Shown one piece after another: positions 8,124 through 54,172 of a stretch of DNA of 64,000 nt; position 1 is the first letter of the stretch, and every line of letters begins with the position of its first letter. Origin of the DNA: Candidatus Levyibacteriota bacterium (lineage in GTDB: Bacteria > Patescibacteriota > Microgenomatia > Levybacterales > UBA12049); NCBI GenBank assembly GCA_041906785.1, contig JAYRIM010000028.1, positions 121,661 to 185,660 on the forward strand. Reading direction: 5' to 3'. The notes below the pieces were generated by a model. The model ran no database searches, was not told where the DNA came from, and worked only from the letters and a program-made list of their open reading frames with translations. Made by a program: the position numbers and the translations under genes.

Positions 8124-8174
8124 GTAGTATGTTAGAATATTTCTTATAGAAATTATAACTCAACTTTTCGATAA

Positions 8175-8873
8175 ATGAAAAAACCAAATGTATCTATTAT
8201 TTTCCCTGTCCACAATGAAGAAGAGGGAATAACAGAGTTTATCAAGTACGTTTTTAAACAATTGAAACAAGTAGATTTTACATATGAAGTTTTCTTTATT
8301 GAAAATGGTTCTCGTGATAATAGTTTTAATATTTTAAAAGAATTGCAGAAGGAATTCGAATTTAAACTTTTAAAATCAAGGAAGGGGTGGGGAAATGCCG
8401 TAAAAGAAGGTTTTAAAAACGCGCAAGGAGAATATATTTGTTATATGGTTTCAGATTGGCAGGTAGATCCGAAATATATTTCGTTTTTAATGGAAAAAAT
8501 TACTAAATCAAATTTTGATATGGTGAAAGTAAGTAGGATGACAAGGGAAAATAAAACTAGATTAGTTAACTCACGATTATATAATTTACTTGCAATAATT
8601 TTATTTGGAACAAAAACATTCGATATTAACGCTACACCCAAGATAATAAAAGCAAAGATTATTAAAAATAAGCAATTTATTTCAGAAAATATAGCGTTTG
8701 ATTTAGAGTTATTATTATTTCTAAAAAAAAATAAATATAAGTGGAAGGATTTTTCAGTACCATCTTCCAAGCGAAAGACTGGAGTTTCCACAACAAATAT
8801 AAAATCTATTATTGAAATGCTCCGCTATATGATGATATTTAGATTTAGTTCACCTGTTAGAAAAGAACTATAG
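8175..8873 (+). CDS. GT2 family glycosyltransferase
   Basis: VSIIFPVHNEEEGI ... FFIENGSRDNS ... GEYICYMVSDWQVDP motifs. Confidence 0.75.
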   Translation: MKKPNVSIIFPVHNEEEGITEFIKYVFKQLKQVDFTYEVFFIENGSRDNSFNILKELQKEFEFKLLKSRKGWGNAVKEGFKNAQGEYICYMVSDWQVDPKYISFLMEKITKSNFDMVKVSRMTRENKTRLVNSRLYNLLAIILFGTKTFDINATPKIIKAKIIKNKQFISENIAFDLELLLFLKKNKYKWKDFSVPSSKRKTGVSTTNIKSIIEMLRYMMIFRFSSPVRKEL

Positions 8874-9875: not shown

Positions 9876-10010
9876 GTGACTGGAATTATAAAGATTTGTA
9901 AAGAAAAAACAAGTTTAGAAGACGATTATTACTGAAAAACTTTTCTAAAAAAGACTATTGAAATTATATTTCTTGTATGATAGGATCGTAATCGTTGAGT
10001 TAAATTTTTT

Positions 10011-22189: not shown

Positions 22190-22729
22190 ATGAAAATTGG
22201 AATAGATATTTCACAAACTGCTTATGAAGGAACCGGAGTTGCAAATTTCCTTGAAAGATTGGTAGAAACTCTACTAAAAATTGATGAAACGAATGAATAC
22301 ATTTTATTTTATTCATCGCTTCGGAAAAAATTTCCAATTTCCAATTTCCAATTTCAAATTTCAAATAAAAACTTCACAATAAAACAGTTTAAATTACCTC
22401 CAAGCTTACTTGATATATTGTGGAATAAGTTGCATATTGTTCCCATTGAAACATTGATTGGAGATGTAGATGTATTTATATCTTCAGACTGGACTCAACC
22501 ACCTACAAGTAAAGCAAAGCAGGTGACAATTCTCTATGACTTAATTGTGTATACATATCCTGAAGAAACAGACAAAAAAATTGTTGAAGTGCAAAAAAGA
22601 AGACTACAGTGGGTAAAAAAAGAATGTGATCAGATACTATGCATTTCAGAATCCACAAAAAATGATGCAATGAGAATTCTAGGCATAGAAAAGGAGAGGT
22701 TACAGGTTATTTATCCTGGTGTACAATAA
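22190..22729 (+). CDS. GT4 glycosyltransferase, N-terminal (acceptor) domain only. Either a truncated tandem paralog or a pseudogene remnant. Contains a 35-nt heptamer repeat tract.
   Basis: MKIGIDISQTAYEGTGVANF ... ends at YPGVQ*, exactly where the GT4 C-terminal domain would begin. The next gene is a full-length paralog that has its own N-terminal domain. Confidence 0.55.
   Translation: MKIGIDISQTAYEGTGVANFLERLVETLLKIDETNEYILFYSSLRKKFPISNFQFQISNKNFTIKQFKLPPSLLDILWNKLHIVPIETLIGDVDVFISSDWTQPPTSKAKQVTILYDLIVYTYPEETDKKIVEVQKRRLQWVKKECDQILCISESTKNDAMRILGIEKERLQVIYPGVQ
22331..22365 (+). repeat. heptanucleotide tandem repeat tract (3x TTTCCAA + 2x TTTCAAA = 35 nt) inside the GT4 N-domain ORF
   Basis: Read directly from the sequence; encodes FPISNFQFQISN. 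The 7-nt unit is not a multiple of 3. Confidence 0.85.
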
Positions 22730-23885: not shown

Positions 23886-23908
23886 TCTAATTTTAAGATC
23901 CTACCCAT

Positions 23909-23965
23909 GTTGTATTGTTGAATTGTTATATTGTTAGGAACAATAAAGCAATATAACAATAGCAA
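23909..23965. repeat. intergenic TTGTTATATTG inverted-repeat element, copy A
   Basis: GTTGTATTGTTGAATTGTTATATTGTTAGGAACAATAAAGCAATATAACAATAGCAA: direct TTGT(T)ATATTG units followed by their reverse complement CAATATAACAA. Confidence 0.6.
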
Positions 23966-28400: not shown

Positions 28401-28628
28401 GTTCCTATACGGCATGGAGACGCATGGGTATTTCCGGTTGGTTTAAAAGATGCTTTATGGTTCTCATTTAAGAATCCTCAATTATCTGTCAACACCACAA
28501 CATCAGCGAACGATGCATTGAATGCAGCTGCGCATTCTGTAAATCCGAAAGTCTTCGAATTTAATGAAGATGGAACACTTGTAGAGCTAACAAGAGTTAA
28601 AGGAAAAATTATAAAAATTAACCGCTAA
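25455..28628 (+). CDS. 1057-aa giant membrane protein: an O-antigen ligase/polymerase-like (Wzy_C) domain fused to a second polytopic GT-C-like domain and a C-terminal soluble domain
   Basis: FGSGYGSVSLAVDNNYLRMLGEIGLLGL is Wzy_C/WaaL-like; at least 20 TM helices in total; C-terminal ~130 aa hydrophilic. Confidence 0.5.
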   Translation: MKYFKWLKDNILFVITLFLLAFIPLYPKKPLLDIKNTWVYIRAEDFIVVLVMAFWIFLLIRKKITLRTPLTLPILFFWLAGAIATIHGVILIFPTIANVFPNVSFLSFLRHIEYMSLFFIAYSGMKHKRFLPIVITTLTITLLLVIGYGFGQKYLGFPAYLTMNEEFAKGIPIRLSALSRVPSTFAGHYDLAAYLVLIIPILASLIFGFRNWLIKISLLITIVLGFGLLFMTVSRVSFFVLFLALFIVLFFHKKRFVIFSIPIIAVLTFIFISLQPSLFDRFTSTVKDVDVLIDAKTGEALGHVKYLSAEQFKNKTIWQQDVRSKNEIAAIIGDEKDEVLEASPSALFPYENLTPEVPVFIATNISTGENLPQGTGYINLSLSPVTKKLGWFIYERQSNPEKSISEKVYALNGTFLIKRAAAYDLSFTTRFQGEWPNTIKAFKRNIFFGSGYGSVSLAVDNNYLRMLGEIGLLGLLSFIGIFVIIGIYIRKILPDVDSNLAKSFVIGFVAGVVGLFFNAFLIDVFEASKIAFSLWLLAGITVGLLDLYKKKDINLSQEFLHAITSPLAIIVYLITAVIVLYTPMISNYFIGDDFTWFRWADMGGNILTYFTQADGFFYRPGTKIYFYLMYSVFWLNQSVYHAVSLVLHCMIIIEFFLLAKKIFGRTLSASLAAFLFLIISGYFESIFWISSTGHLFSSVFILGSLLFYIVWEDNKKTLYFIASILSFICSLLFYELGIVTPLLILLYAAYKRETYNISFILKRIEYVFYIIPLIFYWLIRYAAQSHWLNGDYNYNIIKLPFNAIGNSIGYFSLTLFGPIVLPFYEKLRDFSKLHVGLTMIVVFSASVLVFFLYKTQRKKINKRDNSIFLFGFFFFVISLIPFLGLGNITSRYSYLASLGLIIILVLVLEKIYNLLSTSGKNIAFGSMVVVLMVFSLFHIMQIQQIHSDWYEAGQKVKRFFIVIDELYIDEWSREPLSLYFVNVPIRHGDAWVFPVGLKDALWFSFKNPQLSVNTTTSANDALNAAAHSVNPKVFEFNEDGTLVELTRVKGKIIKINR

Positions 28629-30091: not shown

Positions 30092-31296
30092 ATATTTTAT
30101 TAATTTCTTCATATTTGCCTTATCCGCTTTATTCTGGTGGACATATCCGACTATTTAATTTAATTAAAGAACTATCGAAAAAGCACAGAATAACATTGGT
30201 TTGCGAGAAACGTGCGTACCAAACTGAAAAGGATATTATGGAAGTCGCCAGGTACTGTGACACTGTTCATACAGTTCACAGGAATAAGCAGTGGAGTCTA
30301 AAAAACATTATAAAAACAGGTTTCTCATTTAAGCCTTTTTTATTAGTCGGTCATGACCATAATGATATGAAGAAAAAGATTAAGGAGTTACTTGAGAAAA
30401 AAAAATTTGATGTCATACATGTTGAAACATTCTACGTACTGCAAAACGTTCCGGAGACTGAAATTCCGATAATACTTGTAGAACATAATATTGAATATTC
30501 AGTATATAAACGGTACGCAGATCAGGCAAAAATTTTTCTTCGTCCATTCTTTTATATTGATGTTAAAAAACTAGAAATCGCTGAAAAAAAATCATGGAAT
30601 AGAGTACATAAAGTAATCGCAGTTTCAGAAATTGAAAAGAAAAAAATAGGAATAGATGGCGTAGAAGTAGTGCCAAATGGTGTAGATCTAGGTCTTTTTA
30701 CTTTTAGAAAACCACTAGAAAAATCATATCATTCTGTTGCTAAACAAGCGCATATGCCAGAGAAAGAGTTGTTATTCATAGGTGATTTTTCTTGGATTCA
30801 AAATCGTGATGCAGTAAAATGGATTATTAATGATATTTGGCCATATTTGTTACGCGCAGTTGAAGGAGAAATTAAAATTAAGTTCCACATCGCAGGAAGA
30901 CAGATTCCTTCGGAAATTAGATCTTTAAGCACATATGACAGCATTATATATACAGAAAATTCACCAAATACTGTAGAACTTTTTAAGAATGCAGATGTAC
31001 TATTAGCGCCGATACGAGTAGGGGGTGGAACGAGCTATAAAATATTGGAAGCAATGGCTACAGGCGTCCCCGTAGTAACAACATCGTTAGGTATTGAAGG
31101 TTTACAGGCCAAACCTGATGTTCATGCTATATGTGCAGACGAAACACAAGCTCTGGTTGAAAAAACAGCTCGGCTTTTGAGAGATACAACTCTCTATGAG
31201 AATGTAGGAAAAAATGCACGGAAACTCATAGAAGAAAAATATAATTGGAAAGTAATTGCAAAGAAATTAGAAGAAGTGTATGAAGCTATAAAATAA
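30088..31296 (+). CDS. GT4 family glycosyltransferase
   Basis: C-terminal GGGTSYKILEAMATGVPVVTTSLGIEG donor-binding region. Confidence 0.8.
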   Translation: MNILLISSYLPYPLYSGGHIRLFNLIKELSKKHRITLVCEKRAYQTEKDIMEVARYCDTVHTVHRNKQWSLKNIIKTGFSFKPFLLVGHDHNDMKKKIKELLEKKKFDVIHVETFYVLQNVPETEIPIILVEHNIEYSVYKRYADQAKIFLRPFFYIDVKKLEIAEKKSWNRVHKVIAVSEIEKKKIGIDGVEVVPNGVDLGLFTFRKPLEKSYHSVAKQAHMPEKELLFIGDFSWIQNRDAVKWIINDIWPYLLRAVEGEIKIKFHIAGRQIPSEIRSLSTYDSIIYTENSPNTVELFKNADVLLAPIRVGGGTSYKILEAMATGVPVVTTSLGIEGLQAKPDVHAICADETQALVEKTARLLRDTTLYENVGKNARKLIEEKYNWKVIAKKLEEVYEAIK

Positions 31297-31360
31297 TTGT
31301 TATATTGCTAAATTGTTATATTGTTTTAGGATTAGAGCGATGTAACAATACAACAATCCT
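31294..31360. repeat. intergenic TTGTTATATTG inverted-repeat element, copy B
   Basis: AATTGTTATATTGCTAAATTGTTATATTGTTTTAGG...GTAACAATACAACAATCC between the GT4 stop and the GT2 start. Confidence 0.6.
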
Positions 31361-36371: not shown

Positions 36372-36375
36372 AAGT

Positions 36376-36425
36376 TATGAGTTATGAGTTATGAGTTATG
36401 AGTTGTAGGTTGTAAGTTGTAGGTT
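36376..36425. repeat. heptamer tandem repeats (4x AGTTATG, then 3x RGTTGTA) with a GC-rich imperfect hairpin downstream (to ~36470)
   Basis: AAGTTATGAGTTATGAGTTATGAGTTATGAGTTGTAGGTTGTAAGTTGTAGGTTG followed by CCCGCCTGCAACG...GCGGGCAGG. Confidence 0.8.
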
Positions 36426-38964: not shown

Positions 38965-39590
38965 TGAATATGAGAACATTTAAGACAGAAGGGATTGTTA
39001 TAAAGAGAAGGAATGTTGGCGAAGCAGATCGGATAATTACTATTTTTTCTAAAGATCATGGTAAATTACAAATAAAAGCTTCAGGTGTTAGAAAAATCAC
39101 AAGCCGCCGATCTCCTCATATCGAATTATTAAACTACGTTAATCTTACATTGTATACAGGTAAGACGTATCCTATATTAGTAGAAGCACAATCGAAAGAA
39201 AATTTTTCTACACTCAAAGAAGATTTACATAAAGTAGGACTCGCGTATCATATTTGTGAATTAATTGATGGTCTCTGCCCTGAAGGTCAGGAACACGAAT
39301 CAGTCTTTGAATTATTAAAAAGAACACTTGTCATCCTGAGTCCCGATGGATATCTGGGCGAAGGATCCCCAATGTACAATGATGCCGGAGATTCTTCGTC
39401 CTTCGACAAACTCACGACTCAGAATGACTTAGTTTTTATAATTCATGAATTTGAAGTAGAGCTTTTAGCATTGTTAGGTTATTGGAGAGGTTCACAAGAA
39501 GTAGCAAAAACGCTTGACACTCAACATATGATAGAGAATATTCTTGAAAGAAAATTAAAAAGCCGTAACATCTTCGCAAAACTTAGTTAA
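38964..39590 (+). CDS. recO: DNA repair protein RecO, carrying a 33-codon in-frame palindromic-element insertion
   Basis: MRTFKTEGIVIKRRNVGEADRIITIFSKDHGKLQIKASGVRK is the RecO N-terminal OB fold. Confidence 0.7.
   Translation: MNMRTFKTEGIVIKRRNVGEADRIITIFSKDHGKLQIKASGVRKITSRRSPHIELLNYVNLTLYTGKTYPILVEAQSKENFSTLKEDLHKVGLAYHICELIDGLCPEGQEHESVFELLKRTLVILSPDGYLGEGSPMYNDAGDSSSFDKLTTQNDLVFIIHEFEVELLALLGYWRGSQEVAKTLDTQHMIENILERKLKSRNIFAKLS
39330..39428. mobile_element. MITE-like palindromic element copy (99 nt, 33 codons), in frame inside recO
   Basis: Left arm GTCATCCTGAGTCCCGATGG; right arm ...GACTCAGAATGAC; GGATCC near the centre. Encodes VILSPDGYLGEGSPMYNDAGDSSSFDKLTTQND. Confidence 0.6.
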
Positions 39591-40549: not shown

Positions 40550-42055
40550 ATGGCTGAGAACATTATGGATAAAATTGTCGCACTTGCAAAACGCCGTGGG
40601 TTTATCTATCCAGGTTCAGATATATATGGTGGTCTGGCTAATACATATGACTATGGACCAATGGGTACTGAGTTACTCCGTAATATAAAAAATCTTTGGT
40701 GGAAAACATTTGTTCATAATAGAGAAGATATAGTAGGTCTTGATGCAAGTGTGATTTCTCATCATCGTATATGGGAAGCGTCTGGACATGCGACAGGGTT
40801 TTCCGATGCACTTGTTGATTGTAAAAAATGTAAAAACAGAAAACGAGCTGATCATCTAATAGAAGAGTGGTTAGAGGAACACAGTAAAGATGTCGATATT
40901 GATGTCATCTTGAGTGGAACGAAGGATCTTATGCAAGATTCTTCGCCAAGGGCTCAGAATGACAAGGCAGTCAAAATAACAAAAGAAGAGTTAGAAAAAG
41001 CTCTTGAACTTAAAAAAGTTGAAGGTTGGTCTGAAGAAAAGATGGATGAGTTTATTAAAAATACTCGTATTCCATGTCCTCAATGTAAAGCAGTTGATTG
41101 GACACCTGTGCGTAGATTTAACCTTCTTTTTCCGGTAAAGCTCGGAATTGTCGAAGGAGAACAAAGTCTGGCTTATCTTCGTGGAGAGACAGCCCAAGGA
41201 ATGTTTGTTGATTTTCGACACGTAGTCGATTCCACTCGTGTTCGTTTACCATTTGGTATCGCACAGTTAGGAAAAAGTTTTAGAAATGAAATAACGTTAG
41301 GTAATTCCGTCTTTAGAACAATAGAGTTTGAACAAGGAGAAATAGAATATTTCTTCGATCCGGAAAAAACACTTTGGGAGAAATTATTTGAAGAATGGAA
41401 GGAACAGATGTGGAATTTCGTTTTGTGGGAACTTGGAATTAATGAGAAAAATGTCAGATGGCGAGTACATACAGATGAAGAACGATCTTTTTATAGTAAA
41501 CGGACAGAAGATCTCGAGTATAATTTTCCTTTCGGATATAAAGAATTATGGGGATTAGCATATCGAACTGATTATGATTTAAAACAGCACATGCAGTTTT
41601 CAGGAAAAGATCTTTCTATCACTGATCCTTATACCCAAAAGAAAGTTATTCCTCATGTTATCGAGCCTGCTGTTGGTATTAACCGTTTGCTTTTGATGGT
41701 GTTATGTGAAGCATATTCTGAGATAGATGACCGGGTAGTGCTAAGTTTGAAACCAAAACTTGCTCCATATAAAGTCGCAGTATTTCCATTACTTGCGAAT
41801 AAAGAAGAATTAGTGAAAAAAGCGAGAGAAATCTACGGTTCTTTAAAGCCTCATATGAATATCGCATGGGATGATAGAGGAAATATTGGTAAAAGGTATT
41901 TATACCAAGATGAGATTGGTACACCATGGTGTGTTACAGTAGATTTTCAAACACTTGAAGATGGAACAGTAACTGTTCGCGATCGCGATACGGCAGAGCA
42001 AGAAAGAGTGAAAGTTGAAGAGCTTACAACACACTTTAATAGCAGGTTAGCATAA
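40550..42055 (+). CDS. glyQS: glycine--tRNA ligase (dimeric alpha2 class II type)
   Basis: GLANTYDYGPMGTELLRNIKNLWW, class II motifs, C-terminal anticodon-binding domain. Confidence 0.9.
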   Translation: MAENIMDKIVALAKRRGFIYPGSDIYGGLANTYDYGPMGTELLRNIKNLWWKTFVHNREDIVGLDASVISHHRIWEASGHATGFSDALVDCKKCKNRKRADHLIEEWLEEHSKDVDIDVILSGTKDLMQDSSPRAQNDKAVKITKEELEKALELKKVEGWSEEKMDEFIKNTRIPCPQCKAVDWTPVRRFNLLFPVKLGIVEGEQSLAYLRGETAQGMFVDFRHVVDSTRVRLPFGIAQLGKSFRNEITLGNSVFRTIEFEQGEIEYFFDPEKTLWEKLFEEWKEQMWNFVLWELGINEKNVRWRVHTDEERSFYSKRTEDLEYNFPFGYKELWGLAYRTDYDLKQHMQFSGKDLSITDPYTQKKVIPHVIEPAVGINRLLLMVLCEAYSEIDDRVVLSLKPKLAPYKVAVFPLLANKEELVKKAREIYGSLKPHMNIAWDDRGNIGKRYLYQDEIGTPWCVTVDFQTLEDGTVTVRDRDTAEQERVKVEELTTHFNSRLA

Positions 42056-43228: not shown

Positions 43229-43258
43229 GGGGGGCCCCGATGTGAAATCGGGACCCCC
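43229..43258 (-). terminator. GC-rich hairpin at the left boundary of the high-GC island (candidate terminator of the minus-strand phosphorylase gene)
   Basis: GGGGGCCCCGAT-gtgaa-ATCGGGACCCCC (11-bp stem with one mismatch); an A/T-rich run follows on the minus strand. Confidence 0.4.
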
Positions 43259-43304
43259 TCCGCACCAGTTGACTCGAGTTGAAGGCGTCAGTGAGTGTAG
43301 CTTC

Positions 43305-44351
43305 TTACTGCTGGGACAGCGCTTCCTGGTAGACCTCAGGCCGGTGGATGAGCAACTCCCGGCACGTACAGTTCGTGGGGATAGGAGCTGTCTCAAGCAG
43401 GAGAGCCTCGAATTCCAGAATCCGCCGCGGGAGCTGCTTGACGTAGAGGCTGTCGAGCGTCGTGTTCAGGCCGAACTTGGGGTCGGTTACATCCTGCCCT
43501 TCGCAGTCGTTCGCGACGATGCAATAGTAACCTTCGTCCATACCAAGATGCCTGCACAGGATTGGCGTAACGCTATCACCGTGGAGCATGGCGAAGGGGG
43601 ATCCTTCGCGCTCGGAGATGGTCTGCATCATGTGTCGCCAGACCATAGTTTCGCCTTCGCTCTCGAACGTGCCGCCTGTTGGACTCCGCAAGATTACGCG
43701 GACGTCGCTGGGGCGGTGAACCTTCGGGAAGAACTCGAGGTCCTCTGCCAGGTCTGCCATCCACCCGCTCAGGCTGACGCAGAAGGGATCCTTCATGCGT
43801 GCCAAGTTCGGGAGGACCCCGCCTATCCCAGTGCCGGGGAGATGCCCGGCCATGTTATCGTTCCGATAAAAGGACCATGGGAAGACGATGTCGCCGGGAC
43901 GAATCGCGTCCTGAAGGTTGGCTGGTGAGCGGGGGTCGTTGACCCCATGGGTACCACCGACGAAGAGAACACGAACGCCAGCCTTCCACAGAATCCAGAA
44001 GAGACGCCATTGTCCTTCATGGGGATGCGTGAATCGTTCACCCCGTACCCCGCCGTAGGACGGAATCCAGATGACGTCACGTCCGGATGAGGTGGTGAAC
44101 TGAGTAACCAGCGGGCCGAGGCCGTAAGGCGTGCGCACACGGGCGTTGAAGTTGAGTACCCAGCCCCTCGCCTGGCGGTCGGCGATGACCTGCTCAGGCG
44201 TGACGCCCCAGAGCGGCGAGCCAGTGATGCTCGCCACGGATGCTGACGGTCCATCATAGGCGAAGTTCAGAACAGCGGGATCTTTATATCCTCCCAACAT
44301 CGGTGCCTCCATAGATATGTTGCATGATGCGTGCCTCCACTGTGGAAACAA
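43305..44351 (-). CDS. MTAP/PNP-family nucleoside phosphorylase (high-GC island). True start probably an internal Met (~44312).
   Basis: LFWILWKAGVRVLFVGGTHGVNDP ... IRPGDIVFPWSFY ... CIVANDCEG parallels MTAP ([23 protein letters not shown] ... PGDIVIIDQFIDRT ... ATDYDCW). Confidence 0.45.
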   Translation of the reverse strand: MFPQWRHASCNISMEAPMLGGYKDPAVLNFAYDGPSASVASITGSPLWGVTPEQVIADRQARGWVLNFNARVRTPYGLGPLVTQFTTSSGRDVIWIPSYGGVRGERFTHPHEGQWRLFWILWKAGVRVLFVGGTHGVNDPRSPANLQDAIRPGDIVFPWSFYRNDNMAGHLPGTGIGGVLPNLARMKDPFCVSLSGWMADLAEDLEFFPKVHRPSDVRVILRSPTGGTFESEGETMVWRHMMQTISEREGSPFAMLHGDSVTPILCRHLGMDEGYYCIVANDCEGQDVTDPKFGLNTTLDSLYVKQLPRRILEFEALLLETAPIPTNCTCRELLIHRPEVYQEALSQQ

Positions 44352-45147
44352 CGCGCATGAAACCGAGTGACAGGACTGCGCTGGCGATTGCCAGGTCGAC
44401 GAGCAAGTCCATCCGATACCGTGTAGTGAAGGTGTACAACAACCACCCGAGGCCGCCGCCGGCTGTCAGCCATTCCACGACCACTGCTGAGAGGATTACC
44501 ACACTCGCCGACGTCTTCAAAGCTGCGAAGAGCATCGGCAGCGAATAGTAGATCCGTACATGGCGGAACGTGGCCCATGGCGTGATGCCTGGCAAGGTCT
44601 GGGTATAGTCCATCACGTCCGACTCCACTTGATGCAACCCTGTGAAGAAGTTGATCAAGGTGGGGAAGAACGTTGCCAACGACACGAGCGCGACTCTCAT
44701 CTTCCAGTTAGGGCCGAGGACGAGCATCAGCATCGGGATCAGAACGATAAACGGCACGCTCTTCACCCAGACTGATGTTCGGAGTACGACCGGTTTTAGC
44801 CATGGCACGAATACCATGACGATCGACAGCATGATCGCGATGCTGTTGCCGACCACGAACCCGGATAGAGCATCTAGCAGCGTTAGGCCGATGTTCTGGA
44901 TGATCCAGATACCGTTCGGAATCCGTAATGCCAGATCCTGTTCCCACAGGGCAACGATGACCTTATGGGGAGCAGGGAGTATGAACTGCACATAGTCGGG
45001 GGCGAAGTGAAGGTAGATGTAGACGAGTAGTATCAGCCCCCCGATGTGCAGGATTAGCCCAAGACGTTCGACGAACTGAGTAGCTCCGCGCTTGAGTAAC
45101 GAGAGCCAACCAGTTGGCTGAGGATGATGTTTCAATGCTACTCTCAT
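44284..45147 (-). CDS. ABC transporter permease (NitT/TauT / binding-protein-dependent family)
   Basis: 6 TM helices; conserved EAA-like region ...ALKTSASVVILSAVVVEWL; high GC. Confidence 0.7.
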   Translation of the reverse strand: MRVALKHHPQPTGWLSLLKRGATQFVERLGLILHIGGLILLVYIYLHFAPDYVQFILPAPHKVIVALWEQDLALRIPNGIWIIQNIGLTLLDALSGFVVGNSIAIMLSIVMVFVPWLKPVVLRTSVWVKSVPFIVLIPMLMLVLGPNWKMRVALVSLATFFPTLINFFTGLHQVESDVMDYTQTLPGITPWATFRHVRIYYSLPMLFAALKTSASVVILSAVVVEWLTAGGGLGWLLYTFTTRYRMDLLVDLAIASAVLSLGFMRVVSTVEARIMQHIYGGTDVGRI

Positions 45148-45159
45148 ACGTAGCCCTCC

Positions 45160-46239
45160 TTACTTCAGGTAGTCGAGTGTCATCAGCTCCTGGAGTGTGG
45201 GACGGCGGCGAATCACGTTGTTTGTCATGTAGAAGTCGAGTGCTTCCTCGATCCGCTTGCCGTCCATCCAGAGAAGACCGTTAGACTTGGTAGACTCGCT
45301 AGTCATCATCGGCGCCTGGAGTTGAATACGGCGCCTCAAGATTTGCTCGGTTTCCGAACCACCGAACGCGAGGGCGGTCTTGACGGTGAAGTCCTGGTCG
45401 TTGATCATGCGCTGCATGCCGTTGCGCAGGCCGCGCAAGAAGGCACGCATGACCTGCTTGCCTTCAGGGGTTTCGAGAAACGACCGCTTGGTGAACACGA
45501 TGTCCGCGTAGAACGGTACACCCCACTGGTTATAGCGGAGCGCCTTCCAGGGCAGGCCCTGCTGCTCGAGTGCGAGGGGTTGATTGACAACCCAGTATGA
45601 AGCGAAATCCACCGACTGCGTGAGCAAATCGGCGGGATTTTCGCCTCCGATGCGGACGATGGTGACGTCACGATCATTTACGCCGTTCTTGTGGAGAAGG
45701 GCGATGAGCTGCGCCTCGCTTTGGACACCGACACGCTTGCCGATCAGGTCCTTGGGCGTGAGCTCGCGCGCCCGCTGCTCTGGCGTCAGGTTTTTCTCCA
45801 GAATGACATATCCGAGAGGATGCTCCTGGAGAATCGCACCCGTCATTACGATGGGTACGTTTTCCGCGACCTGCGGCACGATGCCGTCCAGGCTGGCGGT
45901 AACACCGATCTCAGCCTCGCCGGACAGAACGTTGTTAAGAGCGGGAACTTGAGGCCCACCCTCCTTGAACGTGACGGCGAGTCCTTCTTGTTCGAAGTAT
46001 CCGCCTTTGACAGCATTGTACAGGGCGCAGGACTCGCAGTTATGTCGCCAGGGAAGCTGGACGACGAGCGGGCGAAGGGGTTTGGGAGTAGCGGTAGCAG
46101 CAACGGCGACAGTCGGTGCGGCTTTCGGAGCCGCCGTAGTGACGGCCTTAGGTGCGGCCGCCTGAGGAGCGGGCTGCTGGCAGCTGATGAGCAGGCCAGC
46201 AAGGACAAGCAGAACCAAGAGACGTGGAACACGCTGCAT
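45160..46239 (-). CDS. ABC transporter substrate-binding lipoprotein (NMT1/THI5-SsuA-like)
   Basis: MQRVPRLLVLLVLAGLLISC lipobox, then an Ala/Pro-rich linker and an SBP domain. The ORF track extends 25 codons upstream to 46314. Confidence 0.7.
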   Translation of the reverse strand: MQRVPRLLVLLVLAGLLISCQQPAPQAAAPKAVTTAAPKAAPTVAVAATATPKPLRPLVVQLPWRHNCESCALYNAVKGGYFEQEGLAVTFKEGGPQVPALNNVLSGEAEIGVTASLDGIVPQVAENVPIVMTGAILQEHPLGYVILEKNLTPEQRARELTPKDLIGKRVGVQSEAQLIALLHKNGVNDRDVTIVRIGGENPADLLTQSVDFASYWVVNQPLALEQQGLPWKALRYNQWGVPFYADIVFTKRSFLETPEGKQVMRAFLRGLRNGMQRMINDQDFTVKTALAFGGSETEQILRRRIQLQAPMMTSESTKSNGLLWMDGKRIEEALDFYMTNNVIRRRPTLQELMTLDYLK

Positions 46240-46397
46240 GGTAATCCTCCAGTGAACTGATGCTTTGAGTTGGTTGAGACATGGTAGACCACATTCAAAT
46301 AATGTGATCTCCACTGTTCCATACTTGTCTTTCCTAAGGACAAGTGAGAAATCTAAGGAACAGCAGAATGAAAAATGCCAAACATTTTAAAGGTTCC

Positions 46398-46470
46398 AGG
46401 AGAGACAAAAGAGCCAAATGGGCCAAAGGTTTAGTACCCTTCTGTCTCTTTTGGCTCCTCGGTCCCATTT
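46398..46470. repeat. hairpin repeat family 2 (AATGGGCCAAAGG core), copy 1
   Basis: GAGACAAAAGAGCCAAATGGGCCAAAGGTTTAGTACCCTTCTGTCTCTTTTGGCTCC: an inverted repeat forming a long stem. Confidence 0.55.
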
Positions 46471-46647
46471 TTCCCTTATTATCCCTTGACATTCTTTATA
46501 CTGCTGCTCCTTGATAAGTTGAAAAAATAAATAGCCTTCAACTTGTCAAGGTGCGAAAAATAGTTATTTCTGCAAGCGACGTCTTTTCGCGATTGAAAAT
46601 ATGTTGCTTGGAAAAAGAAAAAAAATATTTCTGTCTCTAAACGAAAA

Positions 46648-46672
46648 AACTCCTCGCGTGTGAGGAGTTTTC
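46648..46672. terminator. bidirectional intrinsic-terminator-like hairpin in the gene-free spacer
   Basis: AACTCCTC-gcgtgt-GAGGAGTT, followed by TTTTC on the + strand and preceded by the complement of TTTTTTCG on the - strand. Confidence 0.45.
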
Positions 46673-46859
46673 AGAATATTGACAGCAAGTAATTATTAAT
46701 AGAAGACAGGGCTCGATGAGATTATTAAAAAGTAAATAAAGCGGTTTAGTAATGACGTTTCTCAACAGCATCACTACTATAGTATTATGTGATTTTTATC
46801 ACATGTCAATAGGGAATTGTCTAGTTTTTGTCTAGTTTTTGTTTGAAAATTTGAAGCAT

Positions 46860-46887
46860 TTGACAAACAAGTGTAAGTTGTTACAAT
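46860..46887 (+). promoter_or_regulatory. near-consensus sigma70 promoter (TTGACA-16-TACAAT) abutting the start of the 46899 gene, giving a leaderless or near-leaderless mRNA
   Basis: TTGACAaacaagtgtaagttgtTACAAT; the predicted TSS is ~5 nt before the ATG at 46899, leaving no room for an SD. Confidence 0.45.
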
Positions 46888-46898
46888 GTAACTAATTG

Positions 46899-47411
46899 AT
46901 GAATAATCAAAAGTTATTTATTGGTTTTGGCATATTGTTAGTTGTACTCCTCCTTGGTGGTGGTTTATTTATTATGTCGTCCGGTAAAAAATCTAGCCAA
47001 TCTCCTACACCTTCTGCTGAGCAATTCATGATAGAAAAACTTTCTCCAGAAGATATTGGTCTAGAATTAATTCCAAAAACGCTTCCAAATGATGGAAAAC
47101 AGATAAAAGTTATAGTGAGTAAAGTTGCTGATATAAAACATTTAGCATATGAAATTACATACGAAGCAGATATTCCGAAAAGTGAATTGCCTCCAGGTGA
47201 GACAGAAGGACGTGTTGAGCGTGGTGTAGGAAATGATGATGTATCGATCAATTCATCTGATAAAAAATACGAATCGAAGTTTTTAGATTTCGGATCTGAG
47301 TCAAAAGGTGTGGTTCGATATGACACAGGAGTAACTGAAGCGAAGATCGTGATGAAAGTCACGAAACGGGACGGAAAAGTCTATCAGGTTGAAGATTCAG
47401 TGAAATTCTAA
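46899..47411 (+). CDS. secreted/membrane-anchored hypothetical protein
   Basis: N-terminal TM/signal (LFIGFGILLVVLLLGGGLFI); ATG at 46899 preferred over TTG at 46896. Confidence 0.4.
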   Translation: MNNQKLFIGFGILLVVLLLGGGLFIMSSGKKSSQSPTPSAEQFMIEKLSPEDIGLELIPKTLPNDGKQIKVIVSKVADIKHLAYEITYEADIPKSELPPGETEGRVERGVGNDDVSINSSDKKYESKFLDFGSESKGVVRYDTGVTEAKIVMKVTKRDGKVYQVEDSVKF

Positions 47412-47503
47412 TTGTTATATTGCTCTATTGTTATATTGTTAACTTCGCACAAGCGAAGTTTTTTATTTGTTTAGCAATAAAACAATACAACAATATAACA
47501 ATT
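47410..47503. repeat. intergenic TTGTTATATTG inverted-repeat element, copy C (longest, with a central stem-loop)
   Basis: AATTGTTATATTGCTCTATTGTTATATTGTTAACTTCGCACAAGCGAAGTT...AGCAATAAAACAATACAACAATATAACAATT. The central AACTTCGC-ACAA-GCGAAGTT hairpin is followed by TTTTTTATTTG. Confidence 0.6.
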
Positions 47504-47566
47504 TCTTCTTTGTCTCTACATATAGTGTTTTATAGTTTCATGAACTCAATTTTTTGAGAATTCTTC

Positions 47567-47595
47567 TTGACACGACCATTAATTTGTATTGTAAT
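47567..47595 (+). promoter_or_regulatory. sigma70-type promoter of mraZ/dcw operon (TTGACA-17-TGTAAT)
   Basis: TTGACA cgaccattaatttgtat TGTAAT, about 55 nt upstream of the mraZ ATG. Confidence 0.55.
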
Positions 47596-47604
47596 AGAAA
47601 GTAC

Positions 47605-47634
47605 TGGCGATTTCTGGTGATTACTGGTGATTTT
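47605..47634 (+). promoter_or_regulatory. putative MraZ operator: three direct 10-bp repeats TGGCGATTTC / TGGTGATTAC / TGGTGATTTT
   Basis: 10-bp periodic direct repeats with a TGGnG core between the -10 box and the mraZ start. This matches the published architecture of MraZ boxes (direct TGGGN-type repeats at 10-bp spacing in PmraZ). Confidence 0.55.
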
Positions 47635-47649
47635 TAAAATTGAAAATAT

Positions 47650-48093
47650 ATGTTTCAGGGACAATACCGTGTTAAAATAGGAGAATTTTTTCGAGTTGCG
47701 TTTCCGAGAACATACAGAGATCGACTGGGTGAGAAGATTATTATCACGTACGGGTTTGAGAGTTCACTAATAATCACATCTGAGAGCCAGTGGGATGCGC
47801 TTTACAAAAAGGAAATTGAAGGTAAATCGTTCCTATTCCCAAATGTTCGGGATATAAGAAGATTTTTTCTCGGTGGAATAGCGACAATTGAATTTGATAA
47901 ACAAGGAAGATTTATTATTCCTGAATATTTACGCACATACGGAGAACTAGTAGATCAAAAAGAAGTGACATTCGTATGGCAGAAAGAATACGTGGAACTT
48001 TGGAATTCGAAGAGATGGGCTGAGAAAGAAAAAGAATTATTACGAAATATTAGCGTTATCGCAGAAAAATTATCGGAAACTGATAAGGTTTAA
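47650..48093 (+). CDS. mraZ: transcriptional regulator MraZ
   Basis: MFQGQYRVKIGEFFRVAFPRTYRDRL ... a duplicated MraZ-domain protein of 147 aa; first gene of the dcw cluster. Confidence 0.9.
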   Translation: MFQGQYRVKIGEFFRVAFPRTYRDRLGEKIIITYGFESSLIITSESQWDALYKKEIEGKSFLFPNVRDIRRFFLGGIATIEFDKQGRFIIPEYLRTYGELVDQKEVTFVWQKEYVELWNSKRWAEKEKELLRNISVIAEKLSETDKV

Positions 48094-48184
48094 TTTCCAG
48101 TTTCGAATTTCCAGTTGCCAATTAATTTGAAATTAATGAATTAATCAATTTACCGGAAATTGGAAAATCGAAATTCGAAACTAA
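48094..48184. repeat. ~90-bp imperfect palindrome filling the mraZ-rsmH spacer
   Basis: TTTCCAGTTTCGAATTTCCAGTTGCCAATTAATTTGAAATTAATGAATTAATCAATTTACCGGAAATTGGAAAATCGAAATTCGAAACT, centred on TTAATGAATTAA. Contains the TTTCCA(A/G) motif and its complement. Confidence 0.55.
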
Positions 48185-49057
48185 ATGGATACTTATCATA
48201 CACCTGTCCTTTTACAAGAAACAATTGAATTTTTAGATGTTCAGTCAGGAAAACGATACATTGATGCAACATTAGGTGGTGGTGGACATACTGAAGCTAT
48301 ACTGAAGCTTGGTGGTACTGTGTTGGGAATAGATACGGATGAAGAGGCTGTTACACACGTTCAAGAGAAACTAAAAATTAAAAACGAAAAAATAAAAATT
48401 ACTAAGGGGAATTTTAGGAATATTGACGAAATAGCAAGAGTGAATGGGTTTGAAAATGTAGATGGCATACTGTTTGACCTGGGTGTTTCAAGTCATCAAT
48501 TCGATAGCGCTGAACGGGGTTTTAGCTTTTTAAAAAAAGGACCATTAGATATGCGTATGGATCGAAGGCTTGGTGTAACTGCGAAAGATTTACTTGCGGT
48601 GCTATCTAAAACAGATCTGGCGAAATTATTTATAGAATACGGAGAAGAGCGATTCGCACATAAAATAGCTGATGCTATCGTAAAACGAAGAGAAATTAAG
48701 CCTATTGAAAGCACAGAAGAGTTAGAAGCATTAATTCGAATGGTAGTTCCTAAGAAGGAAGTCATCCATCCAGGAACACGGGTATTTCAGGCCTTACGAA
48801 TAGCAGTAAACACAGAACTTGAAAATATAGAAGAGGCATTGCCCAAAGCGATCGAATTAGTACACGTAAAAGGCAGAATTGCGGTTATCAGCTTTCATTC
48901 ATTGGAAGATAGAATTGTAAAACGTACATTTGCGGATTGGGAAGAAAATAACATTGGAAATATACTTACGAAGAAACCTGTGATACCAAGCGAAAAGGAG
49001 ATTGCAGAAAATCCTAGAAGCAGAAGCGCAAAATTAAGAGTTTTTGAAAAAATATGA
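48185..49057 (+). CDS. rsmH: 16S rRNA (cytosine1402-N4)-methyltransferase RsmH
   Basis: YIDATLGGGGHTEAIL ... FDLGVSSHQFD motifs. Confidence 0.9.
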   Translation: MDTYHTPVLLQETIEFLDVQSGKRYIDATLGGGGHTEAILKLGGTVLGIDTDEEAVTHVQEKLKIKNEKIKITKGNFRNIDEIARVNGFENVDGILFDLGVSSHQFDSAERGFSFLKKGPLDMRMDRRLGVTAKDLLAVLSKTDLAKLFIEYGEERFAHKIADAIVKRREIKPIESTEELEALIRMVVPKKEVIHPGTRVFQALRIAVNTELENIEEALPKAIELVHVKGRIAVISFHSLEDRIVKRTFADWEENNIGNILTKKPVIPSEKEIAENPRSRSAKLRVFEKI

Positions 49058-49329
49058 AAAAAAGATTTGTCGTCATTTTATTATCTATCACAATACTCCT
49101 TTCCTGTATCCATGTTGTGATATCTAATATGCTTTCGACTGCTGGGGTAGAACTCGATGAAATACAAGAAAAATTAACCCAATATAAAAAAGAAAATTTA
49201 TTACTTCATGAAGATATTTTAGAACATTCTTCTCTGTATTCTATTGCCTCTGCATCAGCGACAATGGGATTTGTCAGTGAAAAATCGCATGTTTATATTT
49301 CCGCGCCTTTACCACTCGCTAAAAGATAA
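49054..49329 (+). CDS. ftsL: FtsL-like small bitopic cell-division protein
   Basis: 91 aa with one TM plus a coiled region, located between rsmH and ftsI. Confidence 0.45.
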   Translation: MKKRFVVILLSITILLSCIHVVISNMLSTAGVELDEIQEKLTQYKKENLLLHEDILEHSSLYSIASASATMGFVSEKSHVYISAPLPLAKR

Positions 49330-49337
49330 TTTTTGAT

Positions 49338-49422
49338 AAGGAGTCAAAAGAGACAAAGGAGACAAATGGGCCAAAGGAATCTAACTTCTGTCCCTTCTGG
49401 TTCTTTGGTCTCTTTTGGTACC
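49338..49422. repeat. hairpin repeat family 2, copy 2 (between the ftsL-like gene and ftsI, overlapping the annotated ftsI 5' end)
   Basis: AGTCAAAAGAGACAAAGGAGACAAATGGGCCAAAGGAATCTAACTTCTGTCCCTTCTGGTTCTTTGGTCTCTTTTGG. Confidence 0.55.
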
Positions 49423-51115
49423 TTTTATTATGACTTTTCGTTATAGAAGCTTATTGGGATTTTTCGCTTGTATTTTCTTCATTATATTTGCGCGGTTATT
49501 CTATTGGCAGGTTGTTCGTGCACAAGAATTAGCAGAACTTGGAGAGATGCAATATGGCCAATTTATAAAACAGATTCCTAAACGAGGAGAAATACGCACG
49601 AGTGATAACTTTCCTATTGCCGCGAATAAAATAAATTACCTTGTTTTTCTTAATCCGAAAACAGTCCCAGATGATGAGAAAGAAAAAATTTCTCCATTAC
49701 TCGCGCCTCTACTCGAAGTAGATCCAGCAAGTATTAGTGCGAAACTTATGATGAACAGGTATTGGGTAGCCTTAAAACCAAATGTGGAACATTCGGTAAA
49801 AGAACAGATTGAAAAGCTCAAGTTACAAGGAATAGGATTCGAAGAACAAACAGTTCGGTTTTATCCAGAGGCTTCATTAGCAGCCAAATTAATAGGATTT
49901 GTCGGGAAAGATGATGAAGGAAATAATAAAGGGTATTTCGGATTAGAAGGATATTATGATCTACAGCTTTCAGGAAAACCTGGTTTGGCTATGCAGATAA
50001 AGGACGCGTTGGGAAGACCGATATTGGCCAAAATGAATAACAGTTCTGCAAAAGTGGACGGTAGAAATATTATTCTCTATGTAGACCGGAGTGTGCAGTT
50101 TATCCTTGAAGAGGAATTACGGAAAGGCCTAGAAAAATATGGCGCTCAAGGTGCTATGGGTGTCATTATGGACCCGAAAACCGGTGGCATTTTAGGAATG
50201 AGTGCTTTTCCGTCTTTCGACCAGCGAAATTTCCAAGAATATTCAAGTGATTTATATTTAAATCCTATCATTTCCAACGCTTATGAGCCCGGATCGACCT
50301 TTAAGCCACTTGTCATGGCTGCAGGAATAGATAGTGGCGTTGTAAAACCTGAAACCCAATGTCCTATTTGTGATAAGCCTGTTGAAATAGGGGGGTACAC
50401 TATAAAAACCTGGAATAATGAATACCAACCCGGTATTACAATGGCAAACGTCATCCGAGATTCTGATAATACAGGAATGGTTTATGTCTCACAAAAACTG
50501 GGATTAAAGAAAATGTATTCTTATTTAGAAAAATATGGTATAGGGTCTTTAACAGGAGTAGATCTTCAAGGCGAGATGTCCCCTGATTTACGTTCCATAG
50601 ATTCTTGGTACCCTATAGATGTTGCGACTGCAAGTTTCGGACAGGGAATATCTGTTACAGCGATTGAATTAGTAAGTGCTTTTGCAAGCTTAGCAAATGA
50701 TGGAAAACGTATGCAGCCGCATGTAGTCTCTAGTGTCGAGACCCCGGAAGGGGAAATTATTCCAATAGCACCGAAAGAAGTGAATCAAACAGTTTCGCCT
50801 ACGACGACGAAAATAATGCGGGAAATTTTAGTTAATGCTGTGAAAAAAGGCGAGGCTAAATGGGCTGCTCCGAAGGGATACAGAATCGCGGGGAAAACTG
50901 GTACTGCACAGATTCCTATTGAAGGTCATTATGATTCAGAAAAAACCATTGCGTCTTTCATAGGATATGCTCCAGCAGATGATCCGAAGTTTGTAATGTT
51001 GATAGTCTATGATCGTCCGACAAGTTCTATTTATGGATCGGAGACTGCAGCGCCGACGTTTTTTACTATTGCCACGAAATTATTAGCTTACTATAAAATT
51101 CCGCCATCAGAATAA
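49415..51115 (+). CDS. ftsI: peptidoglycan D,D-transpeptidase FtsI (class B PBP)
   Basis: STFKPLVMAAG (SxxK), SDN, KTGTAQ motifs; N-terminal TM. True start possibly ATG ~49430. Confidence 0.85.
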   Translation: MVPFIMTFRYRSLLGFFACIFFIIFARLFYWQVVRAQELAELGEMQYGQFIKQIPKRGEIRTSDNFPIAANKINYLVFLNPKTVPDDEKEKISPLLAPLLEVDPASISAKLMMNRYWVALKPNVEHSVKEQIEKLKLQGIGFEEQTVRFYPEASLAAKLIGFVGKDDEGNNKGYFGLEGYYDLQLSGKPGLAMQIKDALGRPILAKMNNSSAKVDGRNIILYVDRSVQFILEEELRKGLEKYGAQGAMGVIMDPKTGGILGMSAFPSFDQRNFQEYSSDLYLNPIISNAYEPGSTFKPLVMAAGIDSGVVKPETQCPICDKPVEIGGYTIKTWNNEYQPGITMANVIRDSDNTGMVYVSQKLGLKKMYSYLEKYGIGSLTGVDLQGEMSPDLRSIDSWYPIDVATASFGQGISVTAIELVSAFASLANDGKRMQPHVVSSVETPEGEIIPIAPKEVNQTVSPTTTKIMREILVNAVKKGEAKWAAPKGYRIAGKTGTAQIPIEGHYDSEKTIASFIGYAPADDPKFVMLIVYDRPTSSIYGSETAAPTFFTIATKLLAYYKIPPSE

Positions 51116-51117: not shown

Positions 51118-51184
51118 GTCATTCTGAGCGTAGCGAAGAATCCAAGAGGTCGTTTAAAAGATGTTTCGCTTCACTCAACATGAC
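51118..51184. mobile_element. short copy of the same palindromic element, immediately 5' of the GIY-YIG gene
   Basis: GTCATTCTGAGCGTAGCGAAGAATCC ... GATGTTTCGCTTCACTCAACATGAC. The GIY-YIG ATG (51180) lies in the right arm; the ftsI stop is 2 nt upstream of the left arm. Confidence 0.55.
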
Positions 51185-51467
51185 AAATATATATTGGGTT
51201 TATATTCTAACGAACTGGAACAATAAAGTACTCTATGTTGGTGTAACCAATAATTTAATTAAAAGAATATATGGACATAAAAATAAATTAGTTGAAGGAT
51301 TTAGCAGTAAATATAACCTTACTAAGTTAGTATATTTTGAAGAGTTCAATTATATAAATGATGCGATTGCAGCTGAGAAAAAAATTAAAGGATGGGTGAG
51401 GATTAAGAAGAATAAACTAATTGAATCAGTGAATCCAGAGTGGGAAGATTTGACTTTGTCATTCTGA
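51180..51467 (+). CDS. GIY-YIG nuclease-domain protein (stand-alone, 95 aa)
   Basis: IYWVYILTNWNNKVLYVGVTNNLIKRIYGHK matches the GIY-x10-YIG core. Its start and stop codons lie inside palindromic element arms. Confidence 0.8.
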   Translation: MTNIYWVYILTNWNNKVLYVGVTNNLIKRIYGHKNKLVEGFSSKYNLTKLVYFEEFNYINDAIAAEKKIKGWVRIKKNKLIESVNPEWEDLTLSF

Positions 51468-51554
51468 GTGAAACGAAGAATCTTTCGTAATTGATAAGAT
51501 CCTTGCGCCACCGCTAAAGCTTTAGCGACACGCGGTCACTTCGTTCAGGATGAC
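51458..51554. mobile_element. palindromic element copy immediately 3' of the GIY-YIG gene
   Basis: GTCATTCTGAGTGAAACGAAGAATCT ... GTCACTTCGTTCAGGATGAC with an internal perfect palindrome CGCTAAAGCTTTAGCG. The GIY-YIG stop TGA is the TCTGA of the left arm. Confidence 0.6.
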
Positions 51555-52864: not shown

Positions 52865-54172
52865 ATGTGGCAATCACTGAAGAACACCTACCATCTTGCC
52901 CAGTCTTTTTTGGCGAACGTCTATTATGGATTTCCGGCAAAAAAACTGACTATTATCGGTGTGACCGGTACGAGTGGTAAAACGACAACTGCTTTAATGA
53001 TCTATTCGATGCTGCAAGCCGCAGGGTATAAAGTCTCTGTGTTAACGACTATTAAAGCTATAATCGCTGGAAAAGAGTATGATACAGGTTTTCATGTGAC
53101 GACACCTGATCCTCACGTTCTTCCTAAATATCTAAAACAAGCTGTAGATAATGGTGACACACATTTCGTCCTTGAAGTTTCTTCTCACGCTCTCGATCAG
53201 AACCGTGCTGCTTTTGTGCCTTTTAAGATTGGAGTTCTTACAACATTGGCACATGAGCATTTAGATTATCATAAAACTTTCATAAATTATGCTCGAGCGA
53301 AATTTAAGCTATTATTCGCATCAGAATGCTCCGTTTTGCCTAAGGGTTTATTTAATAATGCAGAAATTAGAGATTTACTGGATGATCTTACAAAAAAGAA
53401 AAAAATAAAAACATTTGGTCTGAATTCTGGAGAAGAAACACAAAAAAAATGGCATTTTAAACTGACAATGCCAGGTGAATATAGTTTACGTAATGCATTG
53501 GCTGCTGCAACTGTAGGAGATTACCTTGGGATAGATAAAAAAACGATCACTGAAGCGCTTGAGAATTTTTCAGCAATACCTGGAAGATTTGAAGAAATTC
53601 CAAACAGACGAGGTTTACGTATTATTATTGATTTCGCGCATAAACCAGACGCACTTGAGGCTGTTTTACATGTTGCACGATCTCTTGTGAAAGAGAAAGA
53701 AAAGGTGATTGTTTTATACGGATGTGCAAGTGAACGCGATGTATTAAAGCGGCCAATTATGGGGAAAATAAGCGGCCTCTTATCAGATGTGACCGTATTG
53801 ACAGATGAAGATCCACGAAGAGAAGATCCAATGAAAATAATTGATGAAATAGCACAGGGGTGTCTTGAAAGTGGTGCTAAGGAAGGTGTCATTCTGAGCG
53901 ATAGCGAAGAATCTAATGGCGATTTGTACAAAGTTGCAGGGGATCCTTCGTCCGATGGGAATCGGACTCAGGATGACAAACAACATATATTTTTTAAAAT
54001 TCCAAATAGAGAGGAAGCGATTGACTTTGCAATTAATACAATTGCAAGAAAAGGAGATATCATTCTACTTTGTGGAAAAGGACATGAGCAGTCGATGAAC
54101 TATAATGGCGTTGAGAAACCTTGGAGTGAACACAAAGCAGTAGAAAAAGCATTGAATAAAAAAGATTTATGA
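52865..54172 (+). CDS. murE: UDP-N-acetylmuramoyl-tripeptide synthetase MurE-like Mur ligase, with a ~30-aa in-frame palindromic-element insertion near the C-terminus
   Basis: GVTGTSGKTTT P-loop; C-terminal CGKGHEQ; sits within the dcw cluster. Confidence 0.8.
   Translation: MWQSLKNTYHLAQSFLANVYYGFPAKKLTIIGVTGTSGKTTTALMIYSMLQAAGYKVSVLTTIKAIIAGKEYDTGFHVTTPDPHVLPKYLKQAVDNGDTHFVLEVSSHALDQNRAAFVPFKIGVLTTLAHEHLDYHKTFINYARAKFKLLFASECSVLPKGLFNNAEIRDLLDDLTKKKKIKTFGLNSGEETQKKWHFKLTMPGEYSLRNALAAATVGDYLGIDKKTITEALENFSAIPGRFEEIPNRRGLRIIIDFAHKPDALEAVLHVARSLVKEKEKVIVLYGCASERDVLKRPIMGKISGLLSDVTVLTDEDPRREDPMKIIDEIAQGCLESGAKEGVILSDSEESNGDLYKVAGDPSSDGNRTQDDKQHIFFKIPNREEAIDFAINTIARKGDIILLCGKGHEQSMNYNGVEKPWSEHKAVEKALNKKDL
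53888..53976. mobile_element. palindromic element copy inserted in frame inside murE
   Basis: GTCATTCTGAGCGATAGCGAAGAATCT ... GGATCCTTCGTCCGATGGGAATCGGACTCAGGATGAC. Encodes the extra loop VILSDSEESNGDLYKVAGDPSSDGNRTQDD, which is absent from canonical MurE. Confidence 0.6.

Follow-up and report, generated by a model that had tools for sequence, protein, structure and literature searches.

Two copies of a 99-nt imperfect palindrome, in a leader hairpin and in the ftsL–ftsI spacer of a Patescibacteria-type genome

The window analysed here, a 64-kb stretch of contig JAYRIM010000028.1 from a Candidatus Levyibacteriota bacterium, is compact and 32% GC, and carries envelope glycosylation genes as well as the division and cell wall (dcw) cluster mraZ-rsmH-ftsL-ftsI-mur. 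Two copies of a non-coding imperfect palindrome lie within it, 2.9 kb apart and in the same orientation: copy 1 upstream of an NMT1/THI5-like gene on the minus strand and copy 2 between ftsL and ftsI (Table 1). The next RsmH proteins are at most 70% identical, and the few with a source name are mostly labelled Patescibacteria. The best usable relative, L007 (RsmH 67% identical), is fully syntenic, and L009 and L011 (61–64%) share the dcw region.

Two homologous palindromes and their fold

Copy 1 and copy 2 are homologous and represent one non-coding imperfect palindrome of ~99 bp. An earlier note, made from the sequence alone, had placed a palindrome of ~75 nt at both positions; alignment of the copies with each other and comparison with L007 set their limits and extend each to 99 nt. 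In a global alignment, 77 of the 93 ungapped columns are identical (83%), and the mean column identity given by MAFFT is 81%. When copy 1 is compared with the remaining window, the best local score is 64 and the match is copy 2, against 28.5 ± 2.6 (maximum 40) for 200 dinucleotide-shuffled queries. The exact 13-mer AATGGGCCAAAGG occurs twice in the window, both times inside the copies; since two matches were also reached in 40 of 100 shuffles when 2 mismatches were allowed, the significance of the pair rests on the long alignment. At the apex, CAAATGGGCCAAAGG and CTTCTGTC show no differences between the copies, and the conserved apex reads CAAAUGGGCCAAAGG. No special meaning is attached to the 15-nt perfect run, which is roughly what chance predicts within an alignment of 81–83% identity. 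The element has a GC content of 38–43%, compared with 27–31% in four other intergenic stretches of the window, and profile, covariance-model and blastn comparisons reveal no likeness to the GTCATYCTGA, TTGTTATATTG and AATTTCC elements of the same DNA, bearing out the earlier view that it is a distinct repeat. Because the flanks of the two copies are unrelated to each other, the copies are not pieces of a larger duplicated segment.

When transcribed, both copies can form long hairpins on either strand, with minimum free energies of -27.5 and -31.5 kcal/mol on the plus strand and -31.1 and -29.3 kcal/mol on the minus strand (z-scores across copies and strands, -2.1 to -3.5). Folds with DNA parameters are weak in comparison (-11 to -14 kcal/mol, z -1.0 to -2.5), meaning that the stem depends on G-U pairs. 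The consensus fold comprises 21 pairs, all of which are retained in both copies, in a stem of about 35 bp. Two of these pairs are altered on both sides (G-C to A-U and A-U to G-C), and several others have changed on one side to give G-U. AATGGGCCAAAGG, which the earlier note had taken for a simple central loop, turns out to be partly paired, GGGC with GUCY and AAG with CUU. The arms consist of short repeated units, GAGACAAA on one side and YTTYTGG on the other, and the preferred pairing register differs between copy 1 and copy 2. Each strand likewise has its own pairing register, so neither G-U pairs nor energies can decide which strand would be the functional one. No Rfam family reaches the gathering threshold in the window or in L007, L013, L014 and L015; in E-value mode, merely generic hairpin matches of the miRNA type appear, far below threshold.

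The two sites in related genomes

Copy 2 takes up the entire ftsL–ftsI spacer, from just past the ftsL stop codon (TAA 49327–49329) to the base before the ftsI ATG. This spacer measures 100 nt in the window, 87 nt in L007, 19 nt in L009 and 37 nt in L011, while the C-terminus of FtsL and the N-terminus of FtsI are conserved in all four genomes. FtsI starts with MTFRYRSLL in both the window and L007 and with MTWRYR in L009 and L011. Given this match to the relatives, ftsI starts at ATG 49430, as the earlier note had suspected; the mechanically listed start, TTG 49415, falls inside copy 2. In L007, the spacer holds a GTCATCCTG palindrome (GTCATCCTGG...CATGAC) that is unrelated to copy 2 and belongs to the window's other family, so the site appears to have been colonised independently there by a different palindrome. 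Comparison of the four spacers suggests that copy 2 was inserted where the ancestor probably had a short spacer.

The site of copy 1 is not a free spacer, a point that had been missed previously. On the transcribed minus strand, copy 1 constitutes the apical ~100 nt of a long hairpin in the 5′ leader of a gene cassette that begins with the NMT1-like gene. The 221-nt stretch containing this hairpin folds with -78.9 kcal/mol (z -5.5, minus strand). The hairpin base AAGGAGCAGCAG/CUGCUGUUCCUU and the basal stem AAGAAUGUCAA/UUGGCAUUUUU are common to the window and L007, and the basal stem shows one compensatory G-C to A-U change between the two. The DNA flanking copy 1 is 85–100% identical to L007 in blocks; the ~100-nt slot itself is unrelated, as the equivalent L007 hairpin of 146 nt has a different apex. 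Only about 2 and 3 non-element bases lie between copy 1 and the conserved basal stem.

Five lineages carry a very stable hairpin with a conserved base immediately before the NMT1 gene (z -4.8 to -6.9). The apices of these hairpins range from roughly 30 to 115 nt and are mutually unrelated; those of L013, L014/L015 and L020 (a Woesebacteria genome) measure about 30–40 nt. With five lineages carrying unrelated apices, arbitrary apical sequence is evidently tolerated, and copy 1 caps a conserved leader hairpin that was there before it and in which the apical sequence varies freely. At both sites, then, the slot occupied by the element in the window holds other sequence or almost nothing in related genomes. 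The presence/absence difference that the earlier note proposed to look for thus exists, as a polymorphism between species rather than between strains.

Table 1. Coordinates of the two copies and of their surroundings (window positions unless a relative is named)
Feature	Position	Strand	Description
Hairpin-repeat copy 1	46385..46483	+	99 nt, 43% GC; based on similarity, fold, and a slot differing from L007 with conserved flanks
Hairpin-repeat copy 2	49331..49429	+	99 nt, 38% GC; based on similarity, fold, and spacer comparison with relatives
ftsL-like gene	49054..49329	+	91 aa, no Pfam match; C-terminus conserved in relatives
ftsI	49430..51115	+	Penicillin-binding protein dimerisation and transpeptidase domains; start corrected to ATG 49430
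Long 5′-leader hairpin of NMT1 cassette	46356..46512	-	157 nt; apex is copy 1
Leader hairpins of relatives	L007 8170-8372; L013 320-427; L014 7100-7215; L020 3270-3389		
Second, smaller leader hairpin	46306..46354	-	CUGUUCC...GGAACAG, inner stem ACUUGUC/GACAAGU
NMT1/THI5-like ABC substrate-binding protein gene	45160..46239	-	First gene of the GC-rich cassette
Left inverted repeat of cassette	46534..46555	-	CGCACCTTGACAAGTTGAAGGC; belongs to the surroundings of copy 1, outside the repeat
Right inverted repeat of cassette	43261..43286	-	GCCTTCAACTCGAGTCAACTGGTGCG; followed by a GC-rich hairpin at 43229-43260
Cassette extents	Window 43261-46555; L007 3330-8425; L013 about 290-3300; L014 about 7075-11010	- (window)	

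Origin of the copies and likeness to known repeats

On balance, though without great assurance, we lean towards the element being a lineage-specific, low-copy, non-coding palindromic repeat of the REP (repetitive extragenic palindromic), ERIC (enterobacterial repetitive intergenic consensus) or MITE (miniature inverted-repeat transposable element) kind in a lineage of the candidate phyla radiation (CPR)/Patescibacteria type, which landed at two transcribed, hairpin-tolerant sites. Insertion at the two sites would postdate the separation from L007 and would have relied either on mobilisation in trans, with the enzyme encoded elsewhere, or on copying through hairpin-dependent recombination or template switching. 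That palindromic elements do spread in this lineage can be told from the several other palindromic families that occupy neighbouring spacers of the same genome; at least three other palindromic or repeat families were found in the window, in keeping with what the earlier note had reported.

The element may persist because its hairpin is tolerated at both places. At the first site, copy 1 would merely lengthen an existing stem, while at the second, copy 2 would part ftsL and ftsI by 100 nt and leave 5 nt between a stable stem and the ftsI ATG downstream of it, an arrangement that may damp or uncouple ftsI translation with the genes left intact. No evidence of an adaptive role was seen; most likely, the element has no function of its own (i.e. 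it is selfish or neutral) beyond incidental effects on RNA structure.

A number of results weigh against this account. Searches with nhmmer and a covariance model recovered just the two known copies, 2.9 kb apart, from the 64-kb window, and no copy from about 113 kb of seven related loci. The pattern AATGGGCCAAAGGN{4,14}TTCTGTC gave six matches in GTDB species genomes, all of them chance hits with unrelated flanks, and none in viral contigs, and the stricter CAAATGGGCCAAAGGN{4,14}CTTCTGTC gave none in metagenomes of the Joint Genome Institute (JGI); exact-pattern scans of this type would miss diverged copies. A 52-aa open reading frame (ORF) over copy 1 (46334–46492, minus strand; a single frame) has no match in protein collections of 5.8 billion and 1.84 billion entries. 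A Pfam scan of 39 window ORFs revealed neither a transposase nor a REP-associated tyrosine transposase (RAYT). No recognisable target-site duplication is seen at either copy: the flanks read ...GCCAAAC|element|CCCTTGAC for copy 1 and ...AAGATAA|element|ATGACT for copy 2, with no direct repeat visible, although the AT-rich ends would hide duplications of 1–2 nt. The compensatory changes in the stem are without statistical weight, coming from two sequences and being equalled in 127 of 500 shuffles. Any direction or mechanism of copying is putative.

The main rival is a one-off local duplication. One copy, most plausibly the NMT1 leader apex, would then be native, and template switching, ectopic repair or gene conversion would have carried it a single time into the ftsL–ftsI spacer, or else in the opposite direction. 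Such an event would suit the exact count of two copies in the same orientation at a distance of 2.9 kb with none elsewhere in the searched data, the missing target-site duplication and nearby transposase, and the fact that an apex is intrinsic to the leader hairpin in every lineage examined. We nevertheless regard it as doubtful. L007 shares the basal stem yet has an unrelated apex, indicating that the leader apex itself turns over, and the ftsL–ftsI site of L007 appears to have gained a different palindrome on its own, which points to recurrent insertion as the norm. Moreover, the boundaries of the copies are not arbitrary but coincide with the ends of the palindrome. The earlier note had spoken of a dispersed family and set it against a pair of copies within one duplicated segment; with two copies in everything searched, ‘dispersed’ is too strong a word, but the two are not parts of one duplicated segment.

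Alternatively, the copies could be a shared cis-acting RNA element, such as an RNase III-type site or the site of an RNA-binding regulator, through which expression of the nucleoside/base-uptake cassette is tied to that of ftsI. Both do belong to transcribed non-coding RNA immediately before a start codon region, fold far better as RNA than as DNA, are identical in the two apical segments and preserve pairs where both sides have changed. Yet they would be transcribed in opposite senses, copy 1 with the minus strand (NMT1) and copy 2 with the plus strand (dcw operon), leaving the two RNAs with complementary rather than identical apices; together with the relatives that lack the element at both sites, this makes a shared regulatory RNA very unlikely. 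The unrelated apices of other lineages, the chance-level perfect run and the absence of an Rfam match argue in the same direction. Scarcely credible, finally, is that both are intrinsic terminator or attenuator hairpins that merely share sequence: T-rich tracts do follow both stems on the plus strand (CCCATTTTTCCCTTATTAT and CCTTTTATTATG), but a consensus scan that flags a canonical terminator at 47441–47460 flags neither site, no plus-strand gene precedes copy 1 that could be terminated, termination between ftsL and the essential ftsI would be strange, a hairpin as large as this would not fit into the 19- and 37-nt spacers of two relatives, and the stem is long, imperfect and G-U-rich instead of compact and GC-rich with a short loop and an immediate U tract.

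If the element is a repeat that inserted at both sites, its close counterparts in general properties include the ERIC sequences, also known as intergenic repeat units (IRUs). ERICs are enterobacterial intergenic imperfect palindromes of about 127 nt that occur in tens to hundreds of copies. Like them, the element belongs to the ~100-nt class, forms a long imperfect palindrome in transcribed intergenic DNA within or next to operons, has no coding capacity and no known transposase, and is present or absent at orthologous sites between related species. It differs in its host phylum and in its two copies, and a sequence relationship is not expected.

With MITEs such as Correia/NEMIS of Neisseria and the repeat unit of pneumococcus (RUP) of Streptococcus pneumoniae, the element has in common that it is short, non-autonomous and gene-proximal, has complementary ends, can alter transcript structure and shows insertion polymorphism between relatives. 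The ends (AAGG...CCTT with AT-rich tails) are, however, complementary in a trivial manner, because the whole element is palindromic, whereas MITEs carry terminal repeats around a core. In addition, the element has no recognisable target-site duplication, no parent insertion sequence (IS) with matching ends was found among the scanned ORFs, and two copies are seen in 64 kb. REPs and bacterial interspersed mosaic elements (BIMEs) are extragenic palindromes that act as hairpins and accumulate between operon genes, and REP loops are known targets of IS and other repeats, in a manner similar to the position of copy 1 in a hairpin apex. Yet REPs are 20–40 nt long, have a GTAG-type head and are usually clustered in inverted pairs; the element has 99 nt and no GTAG head, and no RAYT is encoded among the scanned window ORFs. 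Without a visible target-site duplication, a REP head or a cognate enzyme in the scanned ORFs, full membership in the MITEs or REPs cannot be claimed.

Rickettsia palindromic elements (RPEs) likewise are palindromic repeats, of about 100–150 nt, that persist in a small, compact genome, but they often lie in frame within protein genes and are many-copy, as opposed to two non-coding copies here. A further comparison is with the GTCATYCTGA palindromes of the same genome, which have a similar length (about 90–100 nt) and use the same kind of site, one of them filling the L007 ftsL–ftsI spacer just as copy 2 does in the window. These are unrelated in sequence, however, have clear terminal inverted repeats and at least five copies in the window, and are common to the window genome and L007, whereas the element is not shared. 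Literature searches turned up no account of MITE- or REP-like families for CPR bacteria. The broader idea that the element is one of a set of palindromes homing to hairpin apices and operon spacers in a CPR lineage, with a host hairpin that belongs to a previously undescribed type of inverted repeat-flanked, mobile or exchanged NMT1 nucleoside/base-salvage cassette, one that keeps its non-coding ends and swaps its coding interior, strikes us as improbable.

Taken alone, the element is a routine small repeat whose value lies mostly in annotation and description: it accounts for an unusually long ftsL–ftsI spacer and led to a corrected ftsI start. It also adds an instance of a very small CPR-type genome in which several palindromic families prone to turnover persist in the spacers of operons. 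Should further copies exist, the element would be usable as a strain marker and as a handle on any enzyme that mobilises hairpin repeats in these uncultivated bacteria. The context of the cassette could matter more, namely for how CPR bacteria acquire salvage functions.

The NMT1 cassette and neighbouring repeat families

The cassette hosting copy 1 is more unusual than the element itself. It has a GC content of 50–60% in a 32% GC genome, and of 48–55% in the other lineages, whose hosts have 35–43%. Its NMT1 gene probably starts at ATG 46239, preceded by GGAGG, and not at the listed GTG 46314, as residue 26 is where the L007 protein starts to align. The cassette is found at different genomic places in different CPR lineages, and in four of them it is bounded by inverted repeats of 14–27 nt (TTRACAAsTTGAAGRCTA upstream and the complement downstream) whose scores were reached by shuffles in 2, 1, 13 and 3 of 500 trials. 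Between the window and L007, the non-coding ends of the cassette are about 85–90% identical and the three shared proteins only 29–38%; the L013 protein of the 320–350-aa PNP-like (purine nucleoside phosphorylase-like) family is 67% identical to that of the window. Judging from these comparisons, the cassette looks like an exchanged or mobile unit with conserved ends. Recent horizontal transfer as the cause of the conserved non-coding flanks was rejected in view of the 29–38% protein identity to L007 and the host-like GC content of the flanks.

Several further observations concern the leader of the cassette. In the smaller hairpin, the inner stem reads ACUCGUC/GACGAGU in L007, a compensatory change relative to the window. 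The leader hairpin has no Rfam match, and a conserved 22-mer of the leader region had no matches in a scan of metagenomes and viral contigs. The leader hairpins could serve processing, stability or regulation of the cassette mRNA. An integron attC site was considered for the long hairpin and rejected, as its base (AAGGAGCAGCAG/CTGCTGTTCCTT) has no RYYYAAC and GTTRRRY cores and no integrase domain is present in the scanned ORFs. A PyrR-binding site was also rejected: UUCCAGGAGAGAC in copy 1 resembles the PyrR loop motif, but it falls on the non-cassette strand, has no counterpart in copy 2 and yields no Rfam PyrR match.

Upstream of the cassette lies a conserved, low-GC non-coding stretch (window 46560–46810, minus strand; L007 8430–8700) with a promoter-like TTGACA-17-AATACT (46809–46781), a hairpin (UAGUAGUGAUG...CAUUACUA) that is likewise conserved and, at 46647–46672, a terminator-like hairpin with a minus-strand T run and with compensatory changes in L007. 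This stretch might represent a small RNA or an attenuating leader. L008, L009 and L011 have neither the stretch nor the cassette. Within the cassette, a 348-aa protein (43305–44351, minus strand) has no Pfam domain and 60 homologues (E ≤ 1e-10) in CPR, Chloroflexi, SAR324 and Verrucomicrobia, some of which are named purine nucleoside phosphorylase by JGI. Its gene follows the NMT1/permease genes in all five lineages examined that have transporter genes, and occurs without them in L017/L018. The protein represents an uncharacterised, salvage-linked family.

Among the other repeats, the GTCATYCTGA...TCAGRATGAC palindromes of 60–100 nt lie at 39330–39428, 40903–40963, 51118–51185, 51458–51554, 53888–53977 and 61306 of the window, and at 9926–9990 and 11179–11249 of L007, where they fill the mraZ–rsmH and ftsL–ftsI spacers. 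With 10 exact end motifs against 0.29 expected, these palindromes have the look of a true MITE-like family with many copies. Inverted arrays of short tandem units (TTGTTATATTG, AATTTCC and GTTATGA/GTTGTAG) are found at 47410–47503, 31294–31356, 23904–23959, 48099–48182, 22329–22374 and 36372–36425; they flank terminator-like hairpins or form spacer palindromes, e.g. around the terminator at 47441–47460 and between mraZ and rsmH. Finally, positions 1–32000 of the window are taken up by a large envelope glycosylation cluster with many GT2/GT4 glycosyltransferases, epimerases/dehydratases, PMT_2 proteins, a split transketolase, a sulfotransferase and several large ORFs that have no Pfam match, such as that at 25455–28628 (1057 aa).

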